NCBI GenBank assembly: GCA_003159795.1 | Contig: PLPK01000054.1 | Span: 1,519-65,518, forward strand | Source: Acidimicrobiaceae bacterium | GTDB taxonomy: Bacteria > Actinomycetota > Acidimicrobiia > Acidimicrobiales > Bog-793 | DNA length: 64,000 nucleotides | Direction of reading: 5' to 3' | Shown here: positions 52,823-64,000 of the stretch, piece after piece | How the letters are laid out: each line of letters begins with the position of its first letter | How positions within the stretch are numbered: position 1 is the first letter of the stretch | Made by a program: the position numbers and the translations under genes | Notes under the pieces: model-generated | What the model saw: the letters and a program-made list of their open reading frames with translations, nothing else | What the model was told of the DNA's origin: nothing | Databases searched by the model: none

Positions 52823-54295
52823 TCAGTCCACCCCCACCAGGGTCTTCACCGCCGCGATGATGGCCCGCAGGCCGGCCTGCGCGTCGGCGAAGAACATGCC
52901 CGTCTTCGGGTCGGTGTAGAGCTCGTTGTCGATGCCGGCGTAGCCGTAGCCCATCGATCGCTTGATGACAATGATGCTCTTCGCCTTGTCGACGTCGAGG
53001 ATCGGCATGCCCGAGACGGCGTTGCCGGGCCGGCGGGCGGCCGGATTCGTCACGTCGTTCGCCCCGATCACCAGGGCGACATCGGCGCGCGGGAACTCCG
53101 GGTTGATCTCCTCCATCGTCTTCAGTTCCTCATAGGGAACCTCGGCCTCGGCGAGCAGGACGTTCATGTGGCCCGGCATCCGGCCAGCAACCGGGTGGAT
53201 GGCATAGGACACCTCGACCCCGCGCTTTTCCAACAGGTCCGCCAGCTCCTTCACCGAGTGCTGGGCGTGGGCGGCGGCAAGCCCGTAGCCCGGGACGATG
53301 ATCACCTTCTGCGCGTAGGCGAGCTGGATCGCGACGTCGTCCGCCCCGACCGAGCGCACCTGGCCAGTGGCGCCGGCGCCGATCACGCTCGCCGTGTCGC
53401 CCGTGCCGAACCCGCCGGCGACGATGTTGAGGATCGAGCGGTTCATCGCGTCGGCCATCAGCTTCGTGAGAATGCTGCCGGAGGCGCCGACGAGCGCGCC
53501 GGCGATGATCAGCCCGAGGCTGTTGATGACGAACCCCGCCATCGCGACCGCCGTCCCCGTGAAGGCGTTCAACAACGAGATCACGACGGGCATGTCCGCG
53601 CCGCCGATCGGCATGACCATGATCACGCCCATGACGAGGGCGGCGATGGCGATCCCGATCAGCGTGATGTCGCTGTTCGCCCCGGACAGGATGTACCCGG
53701 TTCCGGCGCACAGGGCGAGAGCCAGCACGAGGTTGATGAAGCGGCCACCGGGGATGACAATCGGGTTCGACGGGATGAAGCCCTGCAGCTTGCCCGCCGC
53801 CACGATCGAGCCCGAGAGCGTCACGGCGCCGATCACGACGTCGAGGACGCTCGTCACCGAGATCCTCGCCGCGATGGTCGGCGCGCCGGCGATCCCGGCG
53901 AGGCGCACGAAGTCGGCGATCGCGACGAGCGCCGCCGCGCCGCCGCCGACGGCGTTGAACAGGCTCACGAGTTGCGGCATCGCCGTCATCTCGACCGAGC
54001 GCGCGAGGTACAGCCCGATGCCGGAGCCGAGGACGCCGCCCACGGCCAGCATGAGCCAACCGGTCGTCGTGATCGTCCCGTCATGGGCGATGAGGGCGAG
54101 GGTCGCCGCGACGGCAACGGCCATGCCGACCGCCGACAGCCGGTTCCCGTGGTTCGCCGTCGGCGGCGCGTTCATCAGGTGGAGGCCGATGACGAAGCAC
54201 GTCGCGGCCAGCAGCAGGATCAGCGTGATGCCGTCCTCGAAGGCGTACGACGGGGAGACGAAGTGGAACATGATAGAAGCGGTGACGGCGCCCAT
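52823..54295 (-). CDS. pntB: NAD(P) transhydrogenase subunit beta
   Basis: Nine or more TM segments, then dIII 'VIIVPGYGLAAAHAQ', 'YAIHPVAGRMPGHMNVLLAEA', 'VIGANDVTNPAA'. Confidence 0.92.
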   Translation of the reverse strand: MGAVTASIMFHFVSPSYAFEDGITLILLLAATCFVIGLHLMNAPPTANHGNRLSAVGMAVAVAATLALIAHDGTITTTGWLMLAVGGVLGSGIGLYLARSVEMTAMPQLVSLFNAVGGGAAALVAIADFVRLAGIAGAPTIAARISVTSVLDVVIGAVTLSGSIVAAGKLQGFIPSNPIVIPGGRFINLVLALALCAGTGYILSGANSDITLIGIAIAALVMGVIMVMPIGGADMPVVISLLNAFTGTAVAMAGFVINSLGLIIAGALVGASGSILTKLMADAMNRSILNIVAGGFGTGDTASVIGAGATGQVRSVGADDVAIQLAYAQKVIIVPGYGLAAAHAQHSVKELADLLEKRGVEVSYAIHPVAGRMPGHMNVLLAEAEVPYEELKTMEEINPEFPRADVALVIGANDVTNPAARRPGNAVSGMPILDVDKAKSIIVIKRSMGYGYAGIDNELYTDPKTGMFFADAQAGLRAIIAAVKTLVGVD

Positions 54296-54621
54296 CAGGA
54301 GTTACCCCCCTGCTCGGTCGCTTCCTTCGCGGCCGGGGCCGGACGACGCTGGAACATCTGGAGCATCCGGTCGGTGACCGCGTAGCCGCCGACGACGTTC
54401 ATGCCCGCGAACACCGCCGCGATGAAGGCGAGCACGTAGCCGACCGTGTTGTGCGCCGTCGAGGCGATGAGGAAGGCGCCCACGATCACGACCCCGTGGA
54501 TGGAGTTCGCGGCCGACATCAACGGCGTGTGGAGCGTCTGGGGGACCTTGGAGATCACCTCGAACCCCACAAGAAGACTGAGCACGAAGATCGTGACATC
54601 AGTGATGAGACTCGTATCCAT
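54295..54621 (-). CDS. pntAB: NAD(P) transhydrogenase subunit alpha part 2 (membrane)
   Basis: 108-aa protein with three TM segments: 'FVLSLLVGFEVISKVPQTLHTPLMSAANSIHG'. ATGA overlap with pntB. Confidence 0.85.
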   Translation of the reverse strand: MDTSLITDVTIFVLSLLVGFEVISKVPQTLHTPLMSAANSIHGVVIVGAFLIASTAHNTVGYVLAFIAAVFAGMNVVGGYAVTDRMLQMFQRRPAPAAKEATEQGGNS

Positions 54622-54625
54622 CGAC

Positions 54626-55864
54626 TCAGGCTCCGTTCGCTAGTGGTTTGCCGGTGCCCGACCCCGCCAGTTCCGCCGTCGCGGGGTTGACCACCTTTCC
54701 TGCGTGGGTGATGACCACACCGGCCTGGATCTCGTCGGTGAGGTCGATTGCCACCTTCCCGTCGGAGACGAGGTGAGCGACAAGTGCACAGATGTTGTGC
54801 GAGTACGCCGTCGACGCCGCGCCCGCCATCGTCGAGGGAAGGCTCCCGGCCCCAATGATCGTCACCCCGTGCTCCGTGACGACCGTGTCGTCGTGACGGG
54901 ACCCCTCGACGTTGCCGCCGAGCTCGCTCGCCGCCATGTCGACGATCACCGACCCGGCGCGCATCGCCCGCACGGCCTCCACCGTGACGAGCAACGGCGG
55001 GCGCCGCCCGGGGACCTGCGCCGTCGTGATGACGACGTCGTGCTGGGCGATGTGCCCGTTCAGTTCCTCCTGCTGCGCCTTGGTCTCCTCGGCGGTGAGG
55101 GCCCGGGCGTAGCCGCCCTCGCCGACCGCCTCGCCGACCGACTTCAGCTCGACGAAGCGACCACCGAGCGACTCGACCTGCTCCTTCGCTTCGGGACGCA
55201 CGTCGTAGCCCCGGACGATGGCGCCGAGCCGGTGGCAGGTCGCGATCGCCTGGAGCCCGGCCACCCCGGCGCCGAGCACGAGCACCTCGGCGGGACGGGC
55301 GGTCCCGGCCGCCGTCATGAGGAGCGGGAAGTAGCGCCCGTAGGCGCCCGCTGCCACGAGGGCGGCCTTGTAGCCGGCGATGTTCGCCTGCGAGCTCAGC
55401 GCGTCCATCGACTGCGCGCGGCTGAGGGTGCGCGGCAGGTTGTCGAGGCTCACGGCGGTGACGCCGCGCCCCGCGAGCAGGCCCGCGAACCCGGGGTCGA
55501 CGAGCGGGGCCAGCAGGCCGATGACGACCTGGCCCGGCCGCAGCTTCTTCACGTCGGCGGCCGAGGGCCGGCCGACGTAGAGGACGACGTCGGATTCCGC
55601 CAGGCACTTGGCCCGGGCGACGACGGTAGCCCCCGCCTGGACGTAGGCGTCATCGAAGAACCACGCTTGCCGGCCCGCGTTCTTCTCGACGAAGACCGCA
55701 TAGCCCGCCCCGTGGAGCTTGCCTACGTCGTCGGGGACGAGTGCGACCCGCTGCTCACCGTCGGCCCCTTCGCGCACGACGGCCACCGAAGGCTCGGTGG
55801 CCTCCGTGGGACCCTTCTCCGGCACCTGTGGCGCCGCGGACGGTTCCGCCCGATCAGCCATCAT
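54626..55864 (-). CDS. pntAA: NAD(P) transhydrogenase subunit alpha part 1 (dI, alanine-dehydrogenase-like)
   Basis: 'RVALVPD', 'LSRAQSMDALSSQANIAGY', 'VLVLGAGVAGLQAIA', 'VITTAQVPGRRPP'. Confidence 0.88.
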   Translation of the reverse strand: MMADRAEPSAAPQVPEKGPTEATEPSVAVVREGADGEQRVALVPDDVGKLHGAGYAVFVEKNAGRQAWFFDDAYVQAGATVVARAKCLAESDVVLYVGRPSAADVKKLRPGQVVIGLLAPLVDPGFAGLLAGRGVTAVSLDNLPRTLSRAQSMDALSSQANIAGYKAALVAAGAYGRYFPLLMTAAGTARPAEVLVLGAGVAGLQAIATCHRLGAIVRGYDVRPEAKEQVESLGGRFVELKSVGEAVGEGGYARALTAEETKAQQEELNGHIAQHDVVITTAQVPGRRPPLLVTVEAVRAMRAGSVIVDMAASELGGNVEGSRHDDTVVTEHGVTIIGAGSLPSTMAGAASTAYSHNICALVAHLVSDGKVAIDLTDEIQAGVVITHAGKVVNPATAELAGSGTGKPLANGA

Positions 55865-55987
55865 CTCCCTCCTTGGGTGGCCCGAGTCACCGCGGCACCC
55901 ATCAGTCGGGCCGCCGGCGCACCCGGCGCCGCCGACCCCCGTCTAATCGATCCAGAGCAGCCGGTCGCGCCGCAGCCGATACGTGGT

Positions 55988-57616
55988 TCAGATCAGCTCC
56001 GGCACCATGACGATCGCGCCGCAGGGGCATTCGGCGACACAGATGCCGCAGCCCTTGCAGTAGTCGTAGTCGAACACGTACCGCTCGCCGGGCCCGAGCT
56101 TAGACACCGCGTTGTCGGGGCAGACCCCATAGCAGTTGTCGCACTCGAAACAGTTGCCGCACGACAGGCAGCGACGCGCCTCGAAGAGCGCGTTTGGTTC
56201 GTCGAGCCCGCCCACGACCTCCTCGAACCCGGTCTGACGTCGCTGCGCCTCGAGCTCGGGCTGGACCGTACGGCCGGCATCCGCGTAGTACCACGTGTTC
56301 AGCGTCTCGATCGAGGCGAGCTCGTGACGGGGCGGCGGCCCCCCCGTTTCGCCCCGAAGCCAACGGTCGATGTTGCGGGCGGCGCGCTTGCCGTGCCCGA
56401 CGGCAACGGTGACGGTGCGCTCGGCTGGGACCATGTCGCCCCCGGCGAAGACGCCGGAGTGGCCAGTCATCATCTGGGCGTCGACCACCACGAGGCCGTC
56501 GCGCACCTCGACGCCCTCGAGGGCCGCGAGCGGCGCGAGATCGGCGTCCTGGCCGAGGGCGAGGATCACGCAGTCGGCGTCGAGGTTGGTGAACTCACCG
56601 GTCGGCTGCGGGAAGCCGGCGGAATCGAGCTCCATCTTCTCGACGAGGACCTTGTCCTTTTCCACTCGCGAGATCGTCGACATCCAGCGCACGGTCACAC
56701 CCTCGGCGAGCGCCTCCTCGACTAGGTCGGCGTGGGCGGGCATCTTCCGGCGGTTGCGCCGGTAGACGATCACGGCGTCGGTCGCGCCGAGTCGCTTGGC
56801 GCTGCGGGCTGCGTCCATCGCCGTGTCGCCGCCGCCGTAGACGACGACGCGGCGGCCGATCGCCACCGGCTCCGCCGCCTCGGTGCCCGCCAGAAAGGCG
56901 AGCGCGTCCAGCAGGCGGGCCGAGTCGGCGGCTGGGACCTGCACGCGGTGCGACAGCTGCGCGCCAAGAACGAGGTACGCCGCGTCGAAGGCGCCCTCCG
57001 CCATCGCCGAGGCGATGTCGGCCACGCCCGCGTCGCAGCGGATCTCGACCCCGAGGTCCTCGATCGCCGAGATCTCGGCGTCGATCACCTCGCGGGGCAG
57101 CCGGTACTTCGGGATGCCGTAGCGCAGCATCCCGCCTGGCCTGGGCGCCGCCTCGCGCACGACGACCTCGTGCCCGGCCCGCGCGAGGTGGTAGGCGGCG
57201 GAGAGGCCCGACGGGCCGGACCCGACGACGAGCACCCGCCGTCCCGTCGCGGGGGCGCGCTCGGGCAGCCGCCAGCCGTGCGCGATCGCCGCGTCGCCGA
57301 GAAACCGCTCGACGGCGCGGATGCCGACGGCCTCGTCGACCTTGCCCCGGTTGCAGGCGGCCTCGCAGGGGTGGAAGCAGACCCGCCCACAGATCGCGGG
57401 CAGCGGGTTGTCCTCGACGAGCCCGCGCCACGCCGCCTCGTAGGCCCCGGCCTCGGCGTGGTACAGCCAGCGCTGGATGTTCTCGCCAGCCGGGCAGGCG
57501 TCGTTGCACGGCGGCATACGGTCGACGTAGATGGGCCTCTCGACCCGCCACGACCCGGTTCGGTTGTCCCGGCTCGACCCAGCGTCGAGCGTGATCGCGA
57601 ACGGGTGCTCGCTCAC
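55988..57616 (-). CDS. fusion protein: PorD-like N-terminus, GltD/NfnB/SudA-like NAD(P)H:FAD oxidoreductase and a C-terminal 2x[4Fe-4S] ferredoxin. It is the last gene of the OFOR operon.
   Basis: 'NRTGSWRVERPIYV' (PorD-like), 'CNDACPAGENIQ', 'CFHPCEAACNRG' (GltD Fe-S), 'VLVVGSGPSGLSAAYHLARAGH', 'GGMLRYGIPKYRLP', C-terminal 'CLSCGNCFECDNC...CPDNA...CKGCGICVAECPCGAI'. GTGA overlap with the beta subunit. Confidence 0.75.
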   Translation of the reverse strand: MSEHPFAITLDAGSSRDNRTGSWRVERPIYVDRMPPCNDACPAGENIQRWLYHAEAGAYEAAWRGLVEDNPLPAICGRVCFHPCEAACNRGKVDEAVGIRAVERFLGDAAIAHGWRLPERAPATGRRVLVVGSGPSGLSAAYHLARAGHEVVVREAAPRPGGMLRYGIPKYRLPREVIDAEISAIEDLGVEIRCDAGVADIASAMAEGAFDAAYLVLGAQLSHRVQVPAADSARLLDALAFLAGTEAAEPVAIGRRVVVYGGGDTAMDAARSAKRLGATDAVIVYRRNRRKMPAHADLVEEALAEGVTVRWMSTISRVEKDKVLVEKMELDSAGFPQPTGEFTNLDADCVILALGQDADLAPLAALEGVEVRDGLVVVDAQMMTGHSGVFAGGDMVPAERTVTVAVGHGKRAARNIDRWLRGETGGPPPRHELASIETLNTWYYADAGRTVQPELEAQRRQTGFEEVVGGLDEPNALFEARRCLSCGNCFECDNCYGVCPDNAVSKLGPGERYVFDYDYCKGCGICVAECPCGAIVMVPELI

Positions 57617-58626
57617 CTCGACCCCTTTCCGGCCCGCTCGCCCAACAGGTCGAAACGCCCGATGTTGCGGTCGGCGATCGCCTGAATGCGGGCGATGTCG
57701 TCGGTCCGCGGCGGGTCCGCGAAGAGGTGGGCGAAACGCCGTTGGGGACGCAGGTACGCCTCGACGGGCTCGCGGTGCCGGATCGGCGTCGCCGAGAGGA
57801 TCTCCCCGTGGGCCGCCTCGAAGAGGGGGAAGAGGCCCGTCTCGCAGGCGAGGCGGGCGAGGCGGATCGTGTCCCGGGACGCCGCACCCCAGCCAAGCGG
57901 GCACGGCACGAGGACGTGCAGGTAGCGCGCGCCGTGCAGCTCCATCGCCCTGCCGACCTTGGCCTCGAGGTCGTGGAGGTAGGCGACAGAGGCGGTCGCG
58001 ACGTACGGGATCTCGTGCGCCACGGCGAGGGCCGGGAGGTTCTTGCCCTGGCCGAAGGCGTTGCCGGGCTCGCGGCCCCGGGCCTCGGTGGTCGCGGTGC
58101 GCGCCGCGGCGGGCGTCGAGGCGGAGCGCTGCACCCCAGTGTTCATGTAGGCCTGGTTGTCGTAGCAGACGAACAGGACGTCGTCGTTGCGCTCGAACAT
58201 GCCCGAGAGGCAGCCGAAACCGATGTCGACCGTTCCCCCGTCCCCTGCCTGGGCGATGACCCGGGTGGCCGTGTCGCCGCGCACCTTCAGCGCCGCGGCG
58301 ACGCCGGTGGCGACGGCGGCGGTGTTGCCGAACAGCGAGTGCATCCAGGCGACCTGCCACGCGGTCTCGGGATACGGCGTCGAGAAGACCTCCAGGCACC
58401 CCGTGGCGTTGACGACGATCAGCTGCCGGTCGGTCGCGGCCATCGCCGCGTCGAGGACAAAGCGGGCGCCGAGCGCCTCGCCGCACCCCTGGCAGGCCCG
58501 GTGGCCCGAGGTGAGCGCGTTCGGGCGGAGGCGGTCGGACTGCACCGTGCGCAGGTGTGGGTCGACGAGGCGGTTGCCGACCGCGAAGCTGCCCACTTGG
58601 CAATAGCTCGACGTCTGCTCGGTCAC
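57613..58626 (-). CDS. 2-oxoacid:ferredoxin oxidoreductase beta subunit (TPP-binding)
   Basis: 'GHRACQGCGEALG', 'GDGGTVDIGFGCLSGMFERNDDVLFVCYDNQAYMNTGVQRS'. Confidence 0.85.
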   Translation of the reverse strand: MTEQTSSYCQVGSFAVGNRLVDPHLRTVQSDRLRPNALTSGHRACQGCGEALGARFVLDAAMAATDRQLIVVNATGCLEVFSTPYPETAWQVAWMHSLFGNTAAVATGVAAALKVRGDTATRVIAQAGDGGTVDIGFGCLSGMFERNDDVLFVCYDNQAYMNTGVQRSASTPAAARTATTEARGREPGNAFGQGKNLPALAVAHEIPYVATASVAYLHDLEAKVGRAMELHGARYLHVLVPCPLGWGAASRDTIRLARLACETGLFPLFEAAHGEILSATPIRHREPVEAYLRPQRRFAHLFADPPRTDDIARIQAIADRNIGRFDLLGERAGKGSR

Positions 58627-58636
58627 GGCGGGCTCC

Positions 58637-59899
58637 CTAGACGATCCGCGCCGCGTTCTCGCGGACGTCGCGCGGCACCCGCGCGGTGCTCGGTGCCCTG
58701 CGGGGGTCCTCCGCCATTCGGGCGAGCTCCCGGTCGACGACGACCCGGTCGAGATCGAGGAAGCTCATCGCGCCGAGCTCACCCCGGATCGCCTCGCCGA
58801 GGACCCGTCGCAGAGACGCCTCGGGGATCGACCGGCCGCCGAGGCCGGCGACGACCGTGTAGGTCTTCGTGCCGCGGTCCGAGACAAGCGCGTCGACCTG
58901 GGCGCCGAGGACCCCCCGACCGCCGACGGCGAAGGCCTTCTCGATGACGACGACGCGGTGCGCCCCCTCGAGCGCCTGGCCGAGCGCCTGCTCGGGGAAC
59001 GGCCGGAAGGTCGTCACAGCTACGACGCCGATCTTCAGGCCCTCCTCGCGCATCTGGTCGACGACGTCTTTCACGGTGCCCACGACCGATCCGAGCGCGA
59101 CGACGATCGTCTCGGCGTCCTCGCTCCGGTAGGCCGAGACGAGCCCGCCACTCGGACGCCCCACGACGCGCTCGAACTCGGCCGCGAGCTCCGGGATGCA
59201 GACGAGTGCCTCGAGCAGACGCGCGTGGGCGAGGTAGCGGACCTCGGTGAAGGCCTCCGGCCCGACCATCGCGCCGATCGAGACCGGTGCGGCCGGATCG
59301 AGGACCTGTTGCGGCGCGAACGGGCGCAGGTAGCGGTCGACCTGCTCCTGGGTCGGGATCTCGACCCGTTCCACCGAGTGGGTGAGGATGAAGCCGTCCA
59401 TGCAGACCATCACCGGCACGCTGAGCCTCTCGGCGAGCCGGAAGGCCTGGATGTGCAGGTCGACGGCGTGCTGATTCGTCTCGGCGAAGAGCTGGATCCA
59501 CCCTGAGTCGCGCAGCGCCATCGCGTCCGAATGGTCGTTCCCGATGTTGATCGGCGCGCCCACGGCCCGGTTCGCCACCGTCATCACGATCGGCAGTCCG
59601 AGACCGGAGGCGTTAAAGACGGCCTCCGCCATGTCGAGCAGTCCCGGGCCCGACGTCGCCGTGTAGGCCCGGGCCCCGGTCGCGGCGGCGCCGATCGAGA
59701 CCGACATCGCGGCGAACTCCGACTCGACGTTGATGAACTCACAGGGCTTCAGCCGCCCCGACTTCACGAGCGAACCGACGCCCTCGATGATGTGCGTCTG
59801 CGGGGAGATCGGGTAGGCACTAACGACCCGTGGACGGCACAGCGCGACCGCCTCGGCGACGGCCCGCGACCCCTCAATCTGGCGGAGCACCGACGGCAC
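58637..59899 (-). CDS. 2-oxoacid:ferredoxin oxidoreductase alpha subunit
   Basis: 'GSRAVAEAVALCRPRVVSAYPISPQT', 'ESEFAAMSVSIGAAATGARAYTATSGPGL'. Confidence 0.85.
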   Translation of the reverse strand: MPSVLRQIEGSRAVAEAVALCRPRVVSAYPISPQTHIIEGVGSLVKSGRLKPCEFINVESEFAAMSVSIGAAATGARAYTATSGPGLLDMAEAVFNASGLGLPIVMTVANRAVGAPINIGNDHSDAMALRDSGWIQLFAETNQHAVDLHIQAFRLAERLSVPVMVCMDGFILTHSVERVEIPTQEQVDRYLRPFAPQQVLDPAAPVSIGAMVGPEAFTEVRYLAHARLLEALVCIPELAAEFERVVGRPSGGLVSAYRSEDAETIVVALGSVVGTVKDVVDQMREEGLKIGVVAVTTFRPFPEQALGQALEGAHRVVVIEKAFAVGGRGVLGAQVDALVSDRGTKTYTVVAGLGGRSIPEASLRRVLGEAIRGELGAMSFLDLDRVVVDRELARMAEDPRRAPSTARVPRDVRENAARIV

Positions 59900-60485
59900 T
59901 CCTCTCGCGGGTCGCCCATGTCCCCACCATCCCGCGGGTCAGGTTGAACGCCTCGGTCGCGGCGGCAACATTCCCCTCACGCATCGCCCCTGAGAAGCGG
60001 TCCTCGATCGCGGTGACGACAGCCGCGAGCGAGACCGCCCCGGTGAGCGCGGCGAAACCACCAAGCAGCACGGTGTTCGGCAGCGGCCGGCCGAGGTGCT
60101 GCAGGGCGATCTCCGTCGCCCGCAGCCCCAGCACGTGGTTCTCGGGCAGTTCGGCCACGAATCCCGCGACGCCGATCGCCACGAGGGTCTTCGTCGTGTT
60201 GACGAGCACCCAGCCATGGGACCTGAGGCCGGCGAACAACCCCGCCTGACGGAGCAGCGTCGCGTCCTGGATCACGAGCGCGTCGGGTTCGTCGATCGGC
60301 GAACGCGTCCGGATCTCCCTCTCGCTGATGCGGCAGAACGAGACGACCGGGGCACCGGTCCTCTCGGAGCCGAAGCTCGGGAAGGCCTGGGCGTGACGAC
60401 CGTCGTTGAACGCCGCCACGGCGAGCAGCTCCGCCGCCGTGACCACGCCCTGTCCGCCCCGCCCATGGATCCGAACCTGGAACAT
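59874..60485 (-). CDS. 2-oxoacid:ferredoxin oxidoreductase gamma subunit
   Basis: 'MFQVRIHGRGGQGVVTAAELLAVAAF..G.HAQAFPSFGSERTGAPVVSFCRIS'. Confidence 0.85.
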   Translation of the reverse strand: MFQVRIHGRGGQGVVTAAELLAVAAFNDGRHAQAFPSFGSERTGAPVVSFCRISEREIRTRSPIDEPDALVIQDATLLRQAGLFAGLRSHGWVLVNTTKTLVAIGVAGFVAELPENHVLGLRATEIALQHLGRPLPNTVLLGGFAALTGAVSLAAVVTAIEDRFSGAMREGNVAAATEAFNLTRGMVGTWATRERSAVGAPPD

Positions 60486-60691
60486 CGGCAGCCTCGCTGT
60501 CCGTCCACCGGACGCTTCGCCCGAGCACCATTCCATGGCCTGGTCACTCGCTTCCCCCTGATGGTCGCGTCGGACCGCCTTGCCCTCCAGGGTCGATGGT
60601 CACAAGCCCCCCGGTCTTTGGCCCACAAACTGCTTTGCAAATGGGTCGACCGGCCCTTCCACCCGGCGAGGCGGCGCCCTAACGTGTCGGC

Positions 60692-61843
60692 GTGCCTTCC
60701 CCCGACGCTGTCGTCATCGATGCGAACGGGGTCGACTCGCTCATCACGTCGCTTCGGGCCCAGGGCTTCCGTGTCATGGGCCCGGTTGTCGCCAACGGTG
60801 CCATCGTCCATCGCGAGATCCGAGCTGCCAAGCAGCTCCCGGTCGGCTGGCACGACGAGCAGGAGCCGGGTTCGTACCGGCTGAGCCACGGCGACGACGG
60901 TGAGATGTTCGGATGGGCGGTCGGACCCGAGTCGTTTAAGCAGTCCGTTTTCCCCTCCCGGTCGGTGCTCTGGCGGGCCCGACGCGACGGCCAGGACTTG
61001 GCCGTCGAAGCCACCGGCGACGACGTCGCGCCCGAGGCCTTCTTCGGGGCCCGTCCCTGCGAGGTCGCGGCGCTGAAGGTCCTCGGCGGGGTGCTCGCCG
61101 GGGCGGCGAGCCCCGATCCCGTGTTCACGCGCCGGCGCGAGACCGCCTTCGTCGTCACCGTCGAGTGCGGCCGGCCGGCGGCGACGTGCTTTTGCACCTC
61201 GATGGGGAGCGGCCCCGGGGCGGCAGCGGACTTCGACCTCGCGCTGACGGAGCTCGCGGGTCCCTCGGGGCGCTTCCTCGTGCGGGTGGGCTCCGAGCGA
61301 GGCGCGGCCGTGCTCGCGGGCGTCGCCTCCCGACCCGCCACAGCCGAAGACCACCGGGCCCGTGACGAGGTCCTCGGCCACGCGGTGGCGGCGATCAGCC
61401 GAACACTCGACGCCGAGGCGGCGCCGGGACTGCTCGCCCGCAACCTCGAGCACCCCCGCTGGGACGACGTCGCCGGGCGTTGCCTCGCCTGCGGGAACTG
61501 CACGCTCGTATGCCCGACCTGTTTCTGCGCCGCCGTCGAGGAGACGACGGACCTTGCCGGCACGGTCGAGGAGACCCGGCGCTGGGACACCTGCTTCGAC
61601 CTCGCCCACTCCTACCTCCACGGCGGCTCGGTGCGGGTGTCCACGCGATCCCGGTACCGCCAGTGGATGACGCACAAGCTTTCGACCTGGGTCGACCAGT
61701 TCGGGAACTCGGGCTGCGTGGGCTGTGGGCGCTGCATCACGTGGTGTCCGGCGGGCATCGACATCACCGAGGAGTGCGCGGCGATCGCGGCAAGCGACGG
61801 CGCGGTCAAGACGAGCGAACCCACCGCGGTTCGGGACAGGTAG
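60692..61843 (+). CDS. Fe-S subunit, AsrA/HydB-like (beta subunit of a group-3b-type NiFe hydrogenase)
   Basis: 'CLACGNCTLVCPTCFC', 'CVGCGRCITWCPAGIDI'. First gene of a B-(cNMP)-G-D-A ordered operon. Confidence 0.7.
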   Translation: MPSPDAVVIDANGVDSLITSLRAQGFRVMGPVVANGAIVHREIRAAKQLPVGWHDEQEPGSYRLSHGDDGEMFGWAVGPESFKQSVFPSRSVLWRARRDGQDLAVEATGDDVAPEAFFGARPCEVAALKVLGGVLAGAASPDPVFTRRRETAFVVTVECGRPAATCFCTSMGSGPGAAADFDLALTELAGPSGRFLVRVGSERGAAVLAGVASRPATAEDHRARDEVLGHAVAAISRTLDAEAAPGLLARNLEHPRWDDVAGRCLACGNCTLVCPTCFCAAVEETTDLAGTVEETRRWDTCFDLAHSYLHGGSVRVSTRSRYRQWMTHKLSTWVDQFGNSGCVGCGRCITWCPAGIDITEECAAIAASDGAVKTSEPTAVRDR

Positions 61844-61848
61844 GCGTC

Positions 61849-62316
61849 ATGGAAGAGATGAGCGAACTCATCGCCAAGAACTCGTTGTTCGCCGGTCTGC
61901 CGGACTCGACGATCCAGCTCGCCGTCGGCTGCGCGCAGAACGTCACCTTCGAGCCGGGCGCGCGCATCCTCGTCGAAGGCGAACCGGCCGACACGCTGTA
62001 CTTGCTGCGCCGCGGGCGGGTCGCCCTGCAGGTGCAGCGCCCCTCGGGCAAGCCGCTCATCATCGAGACCATCGGCCCGAACAGCGTCCTCGGCTGGTCC
62101 TGGCTCGTGCCGCCCTACCGCTGGCAGTTCGACGGCGTGGCGATCGACCCGGTCGGCGCCATCGCGATCGACGGCACGTGCCTGCGGGCCAAGGCCGACG
62201 CCGATGCCGTCTTCGGCTACGAGCTGCTGCGGCGCATCAGCGGCGTGCTGCTGAGCCGCCTGCAGTCGACCCGCGTCCGGCTCCTCGACCTGTACGGGCA
62301 CAGCCTTGATGACTGA
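61849..62316 (+). CDS. stand-alone cyclic-nucleotide-binding-domain protein (no HTH or other output domain)
   Basis: 'LFAGLPDSTIQLAVGCAQNVTFEPGARILVEGEPADTLYLLRRGRVALQV...IETIGPNSVLGWSWL' is the CAP/cNMP beta-barrel followed by the C-helix. It ends at 155 aa, 5 nt after the upstream stop, and overlaps the next gene by 8 nt. Confidence 0.75.
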   Translation: MEEMSELIAKNSLFAGLPDSTIQLAVGCAQNVTFEPGARILVEGEPADTLYLLRRGRVALQVQRPSGKPLIIETIGPNSVLGWSWLVPPYRWQFDGVAIDPVGAIAIDGTCLRAKADADAVFGYELLRRISGVLLSRLQSTRVRLLDLYGHSLDD

Positions 62317-63154
62317 GACGGAGCACGTGTCGCCGGGGCCTTTCGTGCCCTCCCGCTACCGGGTCGTCGACCGCAAGACTGAGAACTCGGACATCACCAC
62401 GCTGTGGCTCGAGCCGGTCGACCGTCCGATCGCGCCGTTCAAGGCGGGGCAGTTCAACATGCTGACCGCCTTCGGGGTCGGCGAGGTCGCCATCTCGATC
62501 AGCTCGGCGCCGGGCGCGCCGGGCGCGATCGAGCACACGGTGCGCGACGTCGGTGCCGTGAGCCACGCGCTCGCGTCGTCCCAGATCGGCGACGTCGTCG
62601 GTCTGCGTGGCCCGTTCGGCACGGACTGGGGTCTCGAGAGCCTCACTGGCTGCAACGTCGTCGTCGTCGTCGGCGGCATCGGCCTCGCACCGCTGCGCGG
62701 CGCGATGCGCTACCTCGCCGAGAACCCCGCGCCCGACCGCAAGGTCGTGCTGCGCGTCGGCGCCCGCCTGCCGGACCAGATCGTCTTCCCAGAAGAGATG
62801 GAACGCTGGCGGGAGATGGGCGTCGACGTCGAGGTGACCGTCGACGTCGCCGACGCCGCCTGGACGGGGCATGTCGGTGTCGTGACCCAGATCCTCACCG
62901 AGCTGCCCTTCGACGGTGCCGGTGCGGTCGCGCTCGTCTGCGGGCCCGAGATCATGATGCGCTTCAGCGCGCGTTCGCTCATCGACCTCGGCGTCTCCCC
63001 CGAGAACATCCGGGTCTCGCTCGAGCGCAACATGCAGTGCGGGATCGCACTCTGCGGGCACTGCCAGCTCGGACCGTTTCTTTTGTGCCGGGACGGGCCC
63101 GTCGTGCCCTACGCGCCGCTCGCGGCGGAACTGATCACGGAGATCGAGAGATGA
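62309..63154 (+). CDS. FAD/NAD(P)-binding plus [2Fe-2S] oxidoreductase, AsrB/HydG-like (hydrogenase gamma subunit)
   Basis: 'FKAGQFNML' (FAD barrel), '[13 protein letters not shown]' (NAD), C-terminal '[24 protein letters not shown]'. Confidence 0.75.
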
Positions 63155-63924
63155 CGATGCGACCGACCCTCGCCGTTTGGAAGTTCGCCTCCTGTGACGG
63201 CTGCCAGCTCGGCATCCTCGACCTCGAGGACGAACTGCTCAGCCTCGTGGGGGCCGTCCAGATCGCGAGCTTCACCGAGATGACGAGCGCCGTCATCGAC
63301 GGACCCTACGACGTCTCGCTCGTCGAGGGCTCGATCACGACCCCCGACGACGCCGACCGGATCCTCGCCGTGCGCGAGGCCTCCGGCCTCCTCGTCACCA
63401 TCGGCGCTTGCGCGACGGCGGGCGGCATCCAGGCGCTCCGCAACTACGCCGACGTCGGCGAGTACACCTCGACCGTCTACGCCCACCCCGAGTACATCAC
63501 GACCCTGGCCGAGTCCAGCCCGATCTCGTCATACGTCAAGGTCGACTTCGAGCTGCGCGGCTGCCCGATCAACCGCTACCAGATCGTCGAGGTCGTCACG
63601 GCACTGCTCGCGGGCCGTCGCCCGGTCATCCCGGGTTACAGCGTTTGCGAGGAGTGCAAGATGGCCGGCAACCTCTGCGTCCTCGTCGCCCACGGGACTG
63701 CGTGCCTCGGGCCCGTGACGCGGGCGGGCTGCGGGGCCCTCTGCCCCGCCGTCAACCGCGGCTGCTACGGCTGCTTCGGGCCGGCGGACACGACGAACAC
63801 CGCCTCGCTCGCGAGACGGCTCACCGAGCTCGGTACGTCCGAACGGGGGATCTCGCGGCTGTTTCGGACGTTCAACTCCGCCGCAACCGAGTTCTCAAAG
63901 GAGAGTCTCGAGCATGACGCCTAG
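63151..63924 (+). CDS. NiFe-hydrogenase small (delta, NuoB-like 20-kDa) subunit
   Basis: '[14 protein letters not shown]', '[14 protein letters not shown]', 'RGCPIN', '[30 protein letters not shown]...GCYGCFGP'. ATGA overlap with the upstream gene. Confidence 0.8.
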
Positions 63925-64000
63925 CGGAGACAGCGCCAACCGCGCGATCGACGTCCACGGGCTCGCCCGTGTCGAAGGGGAGGGGTCGCTGCACGTCGCG
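63914..64000 (+). CDS. NiFe-hydrogenase large (alpha) subunit, N-terminal 29 aa only (continues past the window end)
   Basis: '[29 protein letters not shown]': the 'L.RVEGEG' start is typical of group 3 large subunits. Position is after the small subunit. Confidence 0.6.

Follow-up and report, generated by a model that had tools for sequence, protein, structure and literature searches.

The window analysed here, a stretch of 64,000 nucleotides from an Acidimicrobiaceae bacterium, ends in a [NiFe] hydrogenase operon in which a gene coding for a 155-residue protein of cyclic-nucleotide-binding (CNB, or cNMP) fold lies between the β and γ subunit genes. On balance, the evidence leans towards this protein being a non-catalytic accessory subunit of the bacterial group 3b (sulfhydrogenase/Hyh-type) [NiFe] hydrogenase. 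It is a widespread and uncharacterised HoxI-like analogue from a lineage other than that of HoxI, and its likely role is that of a regulatory subunit which, like HoxI in its own enzyme, acts on the hydrogenase and has so far been overlooked.

All the genes of the operon are carried by the + strand. The hyhB/hydB-like gene of the β subunit (383 residues, Fer4_22), which provides the diaphorase module with its Fe-S protein, extends from 60692 to 61843 and ends with a TAG stop codon (61841-61843). After a gap of 5 nt, the ATG at 61849 opens the gene of the stand-alone CNB-fold protein (61849-62316, TGA stop at 62314-62316). The hyhG/hydG-like gene of the γ subunit, a FAD, NAD(P)H and 2Fe-2S protein of 281 residues recognised by both Pfam and NCBIfam, runs from 62309 to 63154, its ATG at 62309 creating an 8-nt overlap with the CNB-fold ORF. 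The γ stop codon and the start codon of the small (δ) subunit gene (63151-63924; 257 residues, Oxidored_q6) are merged in an ATGA overlap at 63151-63154. The [NiFe] large (α) subunit gene, of which the first 29 codons (63914-64000) are in the window and which continues past its end, starts with an ATG at 63914 and overlaps the small subunit stop (63922-63924). The coordinates and junctions given by the first-pass annotation are exact to the base. This layout shows that the CNB-fold protein is co-translated with both diaphorase module genes, β and γ, and no terminator-like site was found within the hydrogenase operon. Upstream, a divergent intergenic region of 155 nt (60537-60691) separates the β gene from an OFOR γ gene on the minus strand; the operon promoter is presumably located in this region, which contains the palindrome TTTGCAAA at 60634-60641. 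A scan of the upstream region for the sigma-70 consensus gave no match, a result that is uninformative for an actinobacterium of 70% G+C.

The gene order had been read at first as that of a group 3b (hydBGDA/Hyh-type) operon, and the Pfam, NCBIfam and PDB matches are in agreement with this reading. The diaphorase module is composed of an AsrA-like Fe-S β subunit and an AsrB-like FAD/NAD(P)/2Fe-2S γ subunit, and is accompanied by a NuoB-like small subunit. The β subunit matched Pfam Fer4_22 (104.7 bits), the NCBIfam models ShyB (136.7 bits) and HydB (129.1 bits) and, in the PDB, the β chain of sulfhydrogenase 1 (9nez_B, E 4.6e-34). The γ subunit combines the NAD_binding_1, DHODB_Fe-S_bind and FAD_binding_6 Pfam domains and scored 178.8, 138.2 and 137.6 bits with the NCBIfam models AsrB, ShyC and HydG, respectively; for δ, the scores were 165 bits with ShyD and 162 bits with HydD. 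The full large subunit (435 residues) was read from a public contig (L002:10066-11373) that is 100% identical to the window between 61700 and 64000 (2301 nt). Its NCBIfam scores were 246 (ShyA) and 228 (HydA) versus 140 (VhuA) and 139 bits (FrhA), all of them below the archaeal equivalog cut-offs. The best PDB match was the α chain of P. furiosus SHI (9nez_D, 211 bits), with 203 bits for that of T. kodakarensis, whereas MvhA and HoxH (5xf9), which belong to other groups, reached 162 and 135 bits; the large subunit is therefore nearest to the 3b references, as had been anticipated. Both Cys motifs ligating the Ni-Fe site are intact (RICGIC and DPCISCAAH), the C-terminal one is followed by a cleavable extension (DPCISCAAH-FLDVSIDRS), and a HycI-type protease gene is found downstream. 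From its sequence, the enzyme is predicted to be an NAD(P)-linked hydrogenase of the group 3b type, for which H2:NAD(P)+ oxidoreductase activity would be expected.

In 77 of the 80 GTDB genome loci retrieved via the CNB-fold protein, its gene lies between β and γ. The carriers belong to Actinomycetota, Burkholderiales, Acidobacteriota, Verrucomicrobiota, Bacteroidota/Ignavibacteria, Zixibacteria, Chloroflexota, Dormibacteria, Nitrospinota, Chromatiaceae, Armatimonadota and Binatia, and across these 80 loci the arrangement spans at least ten phyla. Burkholderia thailandensis, Rhodococcus and Frankia casuarinae (Francci3_4499) are tractable carriers of the gene. When metagenome loci were retrieved via the small subunit, the gene was directly upstream of γ in 54 of the 56 informative ones (~96%). 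The commonest distances from the β stop to the CNB-fold start were -4 (23 loci) and -14 (12 loci), and those from the CNB-fold stop to the γ start were -17 (16 loci), -4 (13 loci) and -8 (7 loci). The arrangement noticed in the window is thus strongly conserved and its tight coupling is family-wide, overlap of the gene with those on either side being the rule. The median identity to the window sequence is 48% for the CNB-fold protein, on a par with β (49.8%) and γ (49.3%), as expected for genes evolving at one rate. The gene is absent in the close relatives Streptomyces NBC_01340 (L089), L127 and L153, where β and γ are spaced by 90-125 nt, and, judging by locus tags, in the MSMEG_3931-3927 cluster of M. 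smegmatis (PMC2799521). No indel or extension in β or γ was found to mark operons with or without the gene, and no conserved regulator gene adjoins the operons examined.

The sole Pfam domain of the 155-residue protein is PF00027 (43.6 bits for a gathering threshold of 27.5). Its AF2 model (pLDDT 90.1, pTM 0.82) consists of the eight-stranded β-roll followed by a long C-helix that characterise the cyclic-nucleotide-binding fold, and Foldseek gave a probability of 1.00 to many CNB domains, the sensor domains of GlxR and Mtb CRP and the structure 3mdp being the top matches. The long C-terminal helix (residues 120-150 by DSSP on the AF2 model; 62206-62298, + strand) is the counterpart of the dimerisation C-helix of CRP, ends with a conserved RLLDLYG motif and contains the conserved residues R137, L138, R142, L145, D147 and Y149. 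No HTH was found by Pfam in the protein, which stops 5 residues past the C-helix, and the description initially given, a CAP-type β-barrel with a C-helix and no output domain, is borne out. At E<=1e-3, 2867 database proteins match the 155-residue protein, the best 120 of them being 143-173 residues long and 53-92% identical; with so many homologues of conserved length, the ORF is not a chance one. A frameshifted half of a CRP/FNR regulator was considered and ruled out: the length of about 155 residues is that of the family, and the γ gene follows directly, its start codon falling within the last codons of the ORF. Free tandem forms of 300-350 residues also exist. Paralogues at 35-58% identity were found away from hydrogenases, so that the CNB fold is not committed to these enzymes; those of Streptomyces adjoin CBS-domain and universal stress protein genes or belong to stress-type clusters that also encode a GAF sensor kinase and a response regulator, and the copy in L013 is an orphan.

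In sequences collected from JGI, ENA, NCBI and Logan, the CNB-fold domain was also found covalently joined to γ. A clade of cNMP-γ fusions (463-470 residues) comprises ten clusters at 90% identity, with up to 30 member sequences in one cluster and a longest contig of 846 kb. A separate cNMP-cNMP-γ protein of 613 residues is present on 12 contigs, and both types are located in otherwise intact β-[fusion]-δ-α-protease-HypC operons. These two separate architectures speak for a physical association of the protein with the diaphorase module, and strengthen the initial idea of a stoichiometric partner of the enzyme rather than a transcription factor. The double-domain fusion and the free tandem forms fit with a dimer as the working unit. 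In the AF2 model of a natural cNMP-γ fusion the domains are confident, but since the linker (164-181) has a pLDDT <50 and the pTM is only 0.62, no interface between the CNB-fold domain and γ is claimed.

The closest functional parallel is HoxI (PHG093), which belongs to the group 3d soluble NAD+-reducing [NiFe] hydrogenase of Cupriavidus necator (Ralstonia eutropha) H16. The hoxI gene is located on pHG1 at 84835-85338 (L008:14836-15339) and codes for 167 residues. HoxI is a homodimer of cNMP fold bound to the diaphorase module, where it provides an NADPH activation site (PMC3702609, PMC3189943), and catalysis proceeds without it. Both HoxI and the window protein are small stand-alone cNMP folds devoid of output domain, encoded in operons of cytosolic NAD(P)-linked [NiFe] hydrogenases, and both lack the canonical cassette Arg (HoxI motif GELGFIDQTPHSLSVRA). 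However, HoxI keeps the Gly-Glu pair where the window family has Gly-Trp, hoxI follows the protease gene hoxW whereas the window gene stands between the diaphorase genes, and the partners of HoxI are HoxFU, of Complex-I type, instead of AsrA/AsrB-type β and γ subunits. Orthology was rejected, hhalign aligning the two with 10% identity (probability 95.6); the family HMM gave 219 bits for the window protein, 69 bits for Mtb CRP and 40 bits for HoxI, and a tblastn search of plasmids with the window protein did not recover the pHG1 hoxI at E<=1e-3. Since HoxI is no orthologue of these proteins, the analogy is a functional one only.

The four-subunit 3b enzymes, P. furiosus sulfhydrogenase I (9nez/9nf0), that of T. 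kodakarensis (5yxy) and M. smegmatis Hyd3/Hyh, share β, γ, δ, α and the protease gene with the window operon and give the best sequence matches to each of its four subunits, but they have no fifth gene between β and γ (PMC2799521, PMC13332983). The closest solved folds are the sensor domains of M. tuberculosis CRP Rv3676 (3d0s, 3i54) and C. glutamicum GlxR (3r6s, 4byy), which superpose on the window protein with TM values of 0.76-0.78 at 27-29% identity and align without gap from the N-terminus through the C-helix; in contrast to the window protein, both have a HTH at the C-terminus and keep the cAMP cassette (G-E ... R-T) intact. The structural genomics entry 3mdp (Gmet_1532, Geobacter metallireducens), a stand-alone "putative cyclic nucleotide-binding protein" of 142 residues, agrees with the window protein in size and fold (rmsd 1.7 Å, TM 0.92 on the 3mdp length) and matches the family profile over its full length (E 5e-25). 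Its related motif GVSSLIKPYHYTSSARA is also without Glu and Arg, but the identity is 26% only and the Trp signature is missing; no paper on 3mdp/Gmet_1532 was found. The gene itself has been noted in 3b clusters of Frankia, where it was labelled "small transcriptional regulator" (PMC11879354), of a Methylocystis-type methanotroph (PMC12319191) and of Rhodococcus equi (PMC13332983). The opinion that no such subunit had been characterised was overstated, given HoxI and these three papers, but it stands for the 3b gene, which is uncharacterised.

The canonical nucleotide contacts are lost in the family. The equivalent of the phosphate-binding cassette (residues 82-98; 62092-62142, + strand), located by HMMER alignment to Mtb CRP, is degenerate and reads G-W-S-W-L-V-P-P-Y-R-W-Q-F-D-G-V-A, the family signature being GWSWLxPPYRWxFD. 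In this ungapped alignment, W83 replaces the Glu that contacts the ribose 2'-OH, W92 the Arg that contacts the cyclic phosphate and Q93 the Thr. Among 248 relatives, position 83 is W in 219, L in 14, V in 11 and Glu in none, and at position 92 W is again found in 219, with Arg in no more than 4; the next residue, Ser or Thr in receptors, is Gln or His. G82, W85 and P89 are nearly invariant, and the rest of the β-roll, together with the lid/C-helix region, shows the conservation seen in ligand-responsive relatives. Direct gating of the hydrogenase by cAMP or cGMP bound to the subunit, as the first-pass annotation had proposed, could be defended from the PF00027 match above threshold, from the cAMP-binding domains of GlxR and Mtb CRP as nearest folds, and from R91, an Arg right beside the canonical one that 191 of the 248 relatives share. 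In many of the others R91 nevertheless gives way to Q, K, V, T, Y, L or E, the Gly-Glu plus Arg-(Ser/Thr) cassette of cAMP/cGMP receptors of the CAP, PKA-R, PKG or CNG/HCN type is absent, which the annotation itself had listed as a ground for refutation, and with W83 and W92 in place of Glu and Arg this gating is now very improbable. As Trp replaces both universal cNMP contacts, the ligand should be other than cAMP or cGMP.

The loss of all cNMP contacts in favour of an invariant aromatic/proline motif is also compatible with a ligand-free structural adaptor, in which Trp fills or replaces the pocket and the domain only stabilises or oligomerises the diaphorase module; the CNBHD domains of KCNH channels, which reportedly hold an "intrinsic ligand" in their pocket, offer a parallel, and the γ fusions fit as well. 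This explanation is rather doubtful given the conserved β-roll and lid/C-helix, the fact that some close relatives do without the gene, which speaks against a core structural need, and HoxI, the only characterised analogue, which confers a ligand response. A role in trans on transcription, the protein acting as a headless CRP/FNR sensor that controls hyh by C-helix heterodimerisation with a full-length factor or with another regulator, is unlikely: an autoregulator is rarely inserted between overlapping structural genes across >10 phyla, HTH and conserved neighbouring regulator gene are both lacking in the operons examined, and a free partner associated with DNA would hardly be expected to become covalently fused to γ, in one case as a double domain. 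It draws on the CRP-family sensor domains, dimerisation helix included, as closest solved relatives, on the Frankia annotation (PMC11879354) and on the stress-type clusters, with their sensor kinase and response regulator, in which Streptomyces paralogues occur. The operon also holds maturation genes (protease, HypC) and some lineages dispense with the gene, as expected for a factor that assembles or matures the β/γ Fe-S/flavin module without remaining in the finished enzyme. The stable in-frame γ fusions make such a factor quite improbable, the two architectures implying that the domain stays on the mature subunit in those lineages. We know of no Fe-S or flavin assembly factor with a CNB fold.

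As an accessory subunit, the protein would dock on the diaphorase module, most likely on γ (HyhG), as a C-helix-mediated dimer in the manner of HoxI2 on HoxFU in the group 3d soluble hydrogenase. It would be dispensable for catalysis and, on sensing a small molecule, would tune how the enzyme is activated or in which direction it runs. By analogy with HoxI, a pyridine nucleotide might be the best single guess for the ligand, and the Trp-rich GWSWLxPPYRWxFD motif could form either a ligand-binding site or a docking surface. More tentatively, the usual four-subunit view of bacterial 3b enzymes (HyhBGSL) could be incomplete, and most of them could possess a fifth, dimeric sensor subunit. Its remodelled, Trp-rich pocket would bind a metabolite other than a cyclic nucleotide, such as NAD(P)H or another redox reporter, and would thereby turn the enzyme allosterically from H2 evolution to H2 uptake and back, or from an inactive to an active form.

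Few hydrogenases are as widespread in the bacteria of soil, peat and sediment as the group 3b enzymes, which are invoked for redox balancing and for fermentative H2 production under hypoxia. If the protein is a bound sensor subunit, biochemistry and structures obtained with the four-subunit models (P. furiosus SHI, M. smegmatis Hyd3) miss a regulatory layer that about 96% of the sampled operons of related bacteria would have. HoxI would then no longer stand alone, a cNMP fold having been recruited a second time, independently, on the diaphorase side of a soluble hydrogenase. Should the switching be true, fermentative H2 production in aerobes would be under post-translational control.

The hydrogenase operon was re-read on the plus strand, and the genes, their starts and stops, the 5-nt gap and the 8-nt overlap described in the first-pass annotation were all exact. 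The beta gene (60692-61843, 383 aa, stop TAG; Pfam Fer4_22) is separated by 5 nt from the extra gene (61849-62316, 155 codons, ATG at 61849, TGA at 62314-62316), whose product matches PF00027 alone with a score of 43.6 bits for a Pfam threshold of 27.5. This gene overlaps by 8 nt the gamma gene (62309-63154, ATG at 62309; NAD_binding_1, DHODB_Fe-S_bind and FAD_binding_6), the stop of which overlaps the ATG at 63151 of the delta gene coding for the small subunit (63151-63924, 257 aa; Oxidored_q6). The alpha gene coding for the large subunit starts at the ATG 63914, with 29 codons inside the window. The remainder of the operon was obtained from a public contig (L002) which is 100% identical to window positions 61700-64000 and encodes a 435-aa large subunit, a HycI-type protease, HypC, an EamA-family protein and a DUF6390 protein. 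The same proteins are found in the NCBI MAG GCA_003162835.1, and the relatives are named Acidimicrobiales. A scan of positions 60300-62500 for promoter and terminator consensus gave no match; for this organism such a result says nothing about promoters, and it is consistent with a single transcription unit.

The top NCBIfam ranks were ShyB/HydB for beta, ShyC/HydG with AsrB for gamma and ShyD/HydD for delta, all below the archaeal equivalog cut-offs. The large subunit scored 246 bits with ShyA and 228 with HydA, against 140 with VhuA and 139 with FrhA, and its nearest solved structures are the sulfhydrogenase alpha chains of P. furiosus and T. kodakarensis, before MvhA and HoxH. Its RICGIC and DPCISCAAH motifs are intact. 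On these sequence grounds the operon was filed as group-3b type.

A redox cluster lies divergently from the operon on the minus strand (53849-60536). It comprises the PntB/PntA transhydrogenase genes (53849-55864), a gene for a 542-aa Fer4_20 and Pyr_redox_2 protein of the GltD/NfnB/SudA type (55988-57616), and the beta (57613-58626), alpha (58637-59899) and gamma (59874-60536) subunit genes of a 2-oxoacid:ferredoxin oxidoreductase. Together with the NAD(P)-linked hydrogenase, it looks like a module balancing ferredoxin, NADPH and H2. The 155-nt intergenic region between the oxidoreductase and hydrogenase genes contains at 60634-60641 a perfect 8-nt palindrome, TTTGCAAA, which is a candidate operator. 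At the other end of the operon, a DUF6390 gene is located 3' of HypC in three different Acidimicrobiales-type contigs (L002:12087-13843, just past the window end; L001:10209-12075; L091:9807-10628), with a gene for an EamA-family membrane protein before it in two of these loci. The DUF6390 gene could thus far be regarded as a candidate for another conserved accessory gene.

Judged from its sequence and relatives, the extra ORF is a real and complete gene. At E<=1e-3 it matched 2867 database proteins, the best 120 of which share 53-92% identity with it, measure 143-173 aa and carry PF00027 only. When 1.84 billion cluster representatives were searched exhaustively, 5150 matched (1728 below 1e-10), mostly of about 155 aa, with a minority of tandem forms of 2, 3 or 5 repeats. 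The chain ends five residues past the C-helix, gamma starts inside the last codons of the gene, and the protein neither contains a detectable helix-turn-helix nor has space for one. A frameshifted CRP/FNR regulator could therefore be excluded, the family length of about 155 aa being conserved and gamma lying immediately downstream.

The arrangement is widely conserved. A scan built from 9 sequences and run on one genome per GTDB species gave at least 600 pattern matches, at least 508 of which were confirmed as relatives, and the order beta-cNMP-gamma-delta-alpha-protease was found in 77 of the 80 best loci. The beta-cNMP-gamma loci belong to Actinomycetota, Burkholderiales, Acidobacteriota, Verrucomicrobiota, Bacteroidota/Ignavibacteria, Zixibacteria, Chloroflexota, Dormibacteria, Nitrospinota, Chromatiaceae, Armatimonadota and Binatia. 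When the survey was carried out from the hydrogenase side, by scanning metagenomes with the small subunit as anchor, 56 loci had sufficient upstream sequence; the cNMP gene immediately precedes gamma in 54, and in the other two (L127 and L153) beta adjoins gamma. The collected loci (L009-L175) include roughly 130 operons. Of 15 annotated plasmid records that encode a 3b large subunit, 12 have the gene in place; Burkholderia savannae and Rhodococcus qingshengii were inspected directly. Some close relatives lack it: in Streptomyces NBC_01340 beta and gamma are spaced by 125 nt without a cNMP gene, which is present in Streptomyces BHT-5-2, and M. smegmatis Hyd3 (MSMEG_3931-3927), judged by locus tags, has none (PMC2799521). 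Junctions are tight across syntenic loci, the commonest distances being -4 (23 loci) and -14 (12 loci) from beta stop to cNMP start, and -17 (16), -4 (13) and -8 (7) from cNMP stop to gamma start. Median identity to the window proteins is 48% for the cNMP protein, 49.8% for beta, 49.3% for gamma, 64.5% for delta and 57.1% for alpha; the identity correlations ("mirror tree") of the cNMP protein with beta (0.54), gamma (0.45) and delta (0.16) are too weak to serve as evidence.

Paralogues also occur outside hydrogenase operons. In Streptomyces, three of them (35-40% identical; L006:7001-8198, L089:21767-22914 on the minus strand and L090:24651-27099) each precede a CBS-domain protein (CBS and BON in L089) and have universal stress proteins on their flanks. 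The first is also close to a GAF sensor kinase and a response regulator, and its surroundings resemble a dormancy or hypoxia cluster. A close paralogue sharing 56-58% identity is present in two Acidimicrobiaceae MAGs (L013:3899-6462 and L018), where hydrogenase genes are missing for 6 kb around it. The neighbours of the L013 copy, an rve_3 integrase/transposase and a UbiA prenyltransferase, suggest that it was relocated.

The AlphaFold2 model of the cNMP protein, built with 48 homologues, is confident (pLDDT 90.1, pTM 0.82) and predicts a beta-roll of eight strands between short N-terminal helices and a C-helix of 30 residues. Its Foldseek neighbours include two regulator sensor domains, those of GlxR from C. 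glutamicum and of CRP from M. tuberculosis (TM 0.76-0.78, 27-29% identity). Another is 3mdp (rmsd 1.7 A), a Geobacter protein of 142 aa that stands alone and was solved by structural genomics; no literature was found on it under PDB 3mdp or Gmet_1532. In the cassette of CAP and PKA, a Glu holds the ribose 2'-OH and an Arg-Ser/Thr pair holds the cyclic phosphate. The HMMER alignment to M. tuberculosis CRP, ungapped from residue 3 to 105, pairs G82 with the Gly, W83 with the Glu, W92 with the Arg and Q93 with the Thr. Among 248 family members, the Glu-equivalent position 83 is W in 219, L in 14, V in 11 and never E, and the Arg-equivalent position 92 is W in 219 and R in only 4; the neighbouring R91 column holds R in 191 and otherwise Q, K, V, T, Y, L or E. 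The members share the signature GWSWLxPPYRWxFD, in which G82, W85 and P89 hardly vary. Gating of the hydrogenase by cAMP or cGMP, as proposed in the first-pass annotation, agrees with the fold but not with the cassette, whose contacts are lost both in the alignment and in the family columns; such a loss had been named in that annotation itself as grounds for rejecting its proposal. From its sequence the protein would not be a cyclic-nucleotide receptor, which leaves a different ligand, or none as in a ligand-free adaptor.

The strongest new evidence for a partnership with the enzyme came from natural fusions. In L035 and L039, Acidimicrobiales MAGs that differ from each other, cNMP and gamma are joined in frame in a single gene of 467 codons. 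A database search with its product revealed a clade of such fusions, which form ten clusters at 90% identity (lengths of 463-470 aa, identities of 74-100%), with up to 30 member sequences in one cluster, a longest contig of 846 kb and four independent sources. A separate 613-aa cNMP-cNMP-gamma protein was found on 12 contigs in the same search. Both architectures stand between beta and delta in otherwise normal operons, which argues that the domain works in contact with gamma. Tandem arrays of 2, 3 and 5 cNMP domains per chain (300-840 aa) were also found among the library proteins (P0121, P0127, P0122-P0126). The double-domain fusion and the free tandem forms argue for a domain pair as the probable working unit, as in CRP and HoxI2. 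In the AlphaFold2 model of a natural cNMP-gamma fusion (P0273, pTM 0.62), the domains are confident, the linker is disordered (pLDDT <50) and the orientation is not fixed, and a comparison of 3 operons without the gene and 15 with it revealed no systematic docking-site indel in beta or gamma tracking its presence. Since neither result fixes an interface, binding to the enzyme is something that we infer.

Other candidate fusions were left out: P0295 and P0346, in which the C-helix region is garbled, look like frameshift artefacts, and P0296, P0252 and L033 (the last perhaps a beta-cNMP fusion) are isolated or incomplete examples. In P0260, an Arm-type DNA-binding domain precedes two cNMP copies.

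A precedent is found in group 3d. Secondary sources give the composition HoxFUYHI2 for the NAD+-reducing soluble hydrogenase of Cupriavidus necator, HoxI being a small cNMP-fold protein, which is lost from the enzyme at high salt and alkaline pH. The pHG1 hoxI sequence (L008:14836-15339) was compared with the window family: the fold is common to both, but identity is 10% (hhalign), and on the family HMM HoxI reaches 40 bits, less than M. tuberculosis CRP (69) and the window protein (219). These scores rule out orthology, so in our reading the protein would be HoxI-like in its working yet outside the HoxI family, and the recruitment of the fold looks independent. In a Terriglobia MAG (L076:558-6459), a family member (46% identical) lies directly 3' of the protease gene, the position of hoxI relative to hoxW in C. 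necator, in a different cytosolic hydrogenase cluster with a HoxU-like Fe-S protein, MvhD/FlpD, a small subunit and a large subunit 28% identical to that of the window. The extra gene had been noticed in three papers, one on Frankia (PMC11879354), one on methanotrophs that names the 3b-cluster gene HoxI (PMC12319191) and one on Rhodococcus equi that lists it (PMC13332983); the literature search found no biochemical work on it.

We thus favor a stable, probably dimeric association of the cNMP protein with the diaphorase module, in which its role would be regulatory and not catalytic. By analogy with HoxI, the ligand might speculatively be a pyridine nucleotide, and the Trp motif might, equally speculatively, be the ligand site instead of a docking surface. 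A ligand-free adaptor, an assembly factor or a transcriptional modulator acting in trans would be further alternatives; the fold is that of CRP sensor domains, the output domain is missing, and the gamma fusions point to the enzyme itself. Of the earlier proposal, the likely enzyme partner is retained on account of these fusions, the cyclic-nucleotide receptor is abandoned and, given HoxI, such a subunit is not unprecedented. The extra gene is of moderate interest because reference 3b enzymes lack it and testing is easy; it represents a widespread, uncharacterised HoxI-like variant in group 3b.
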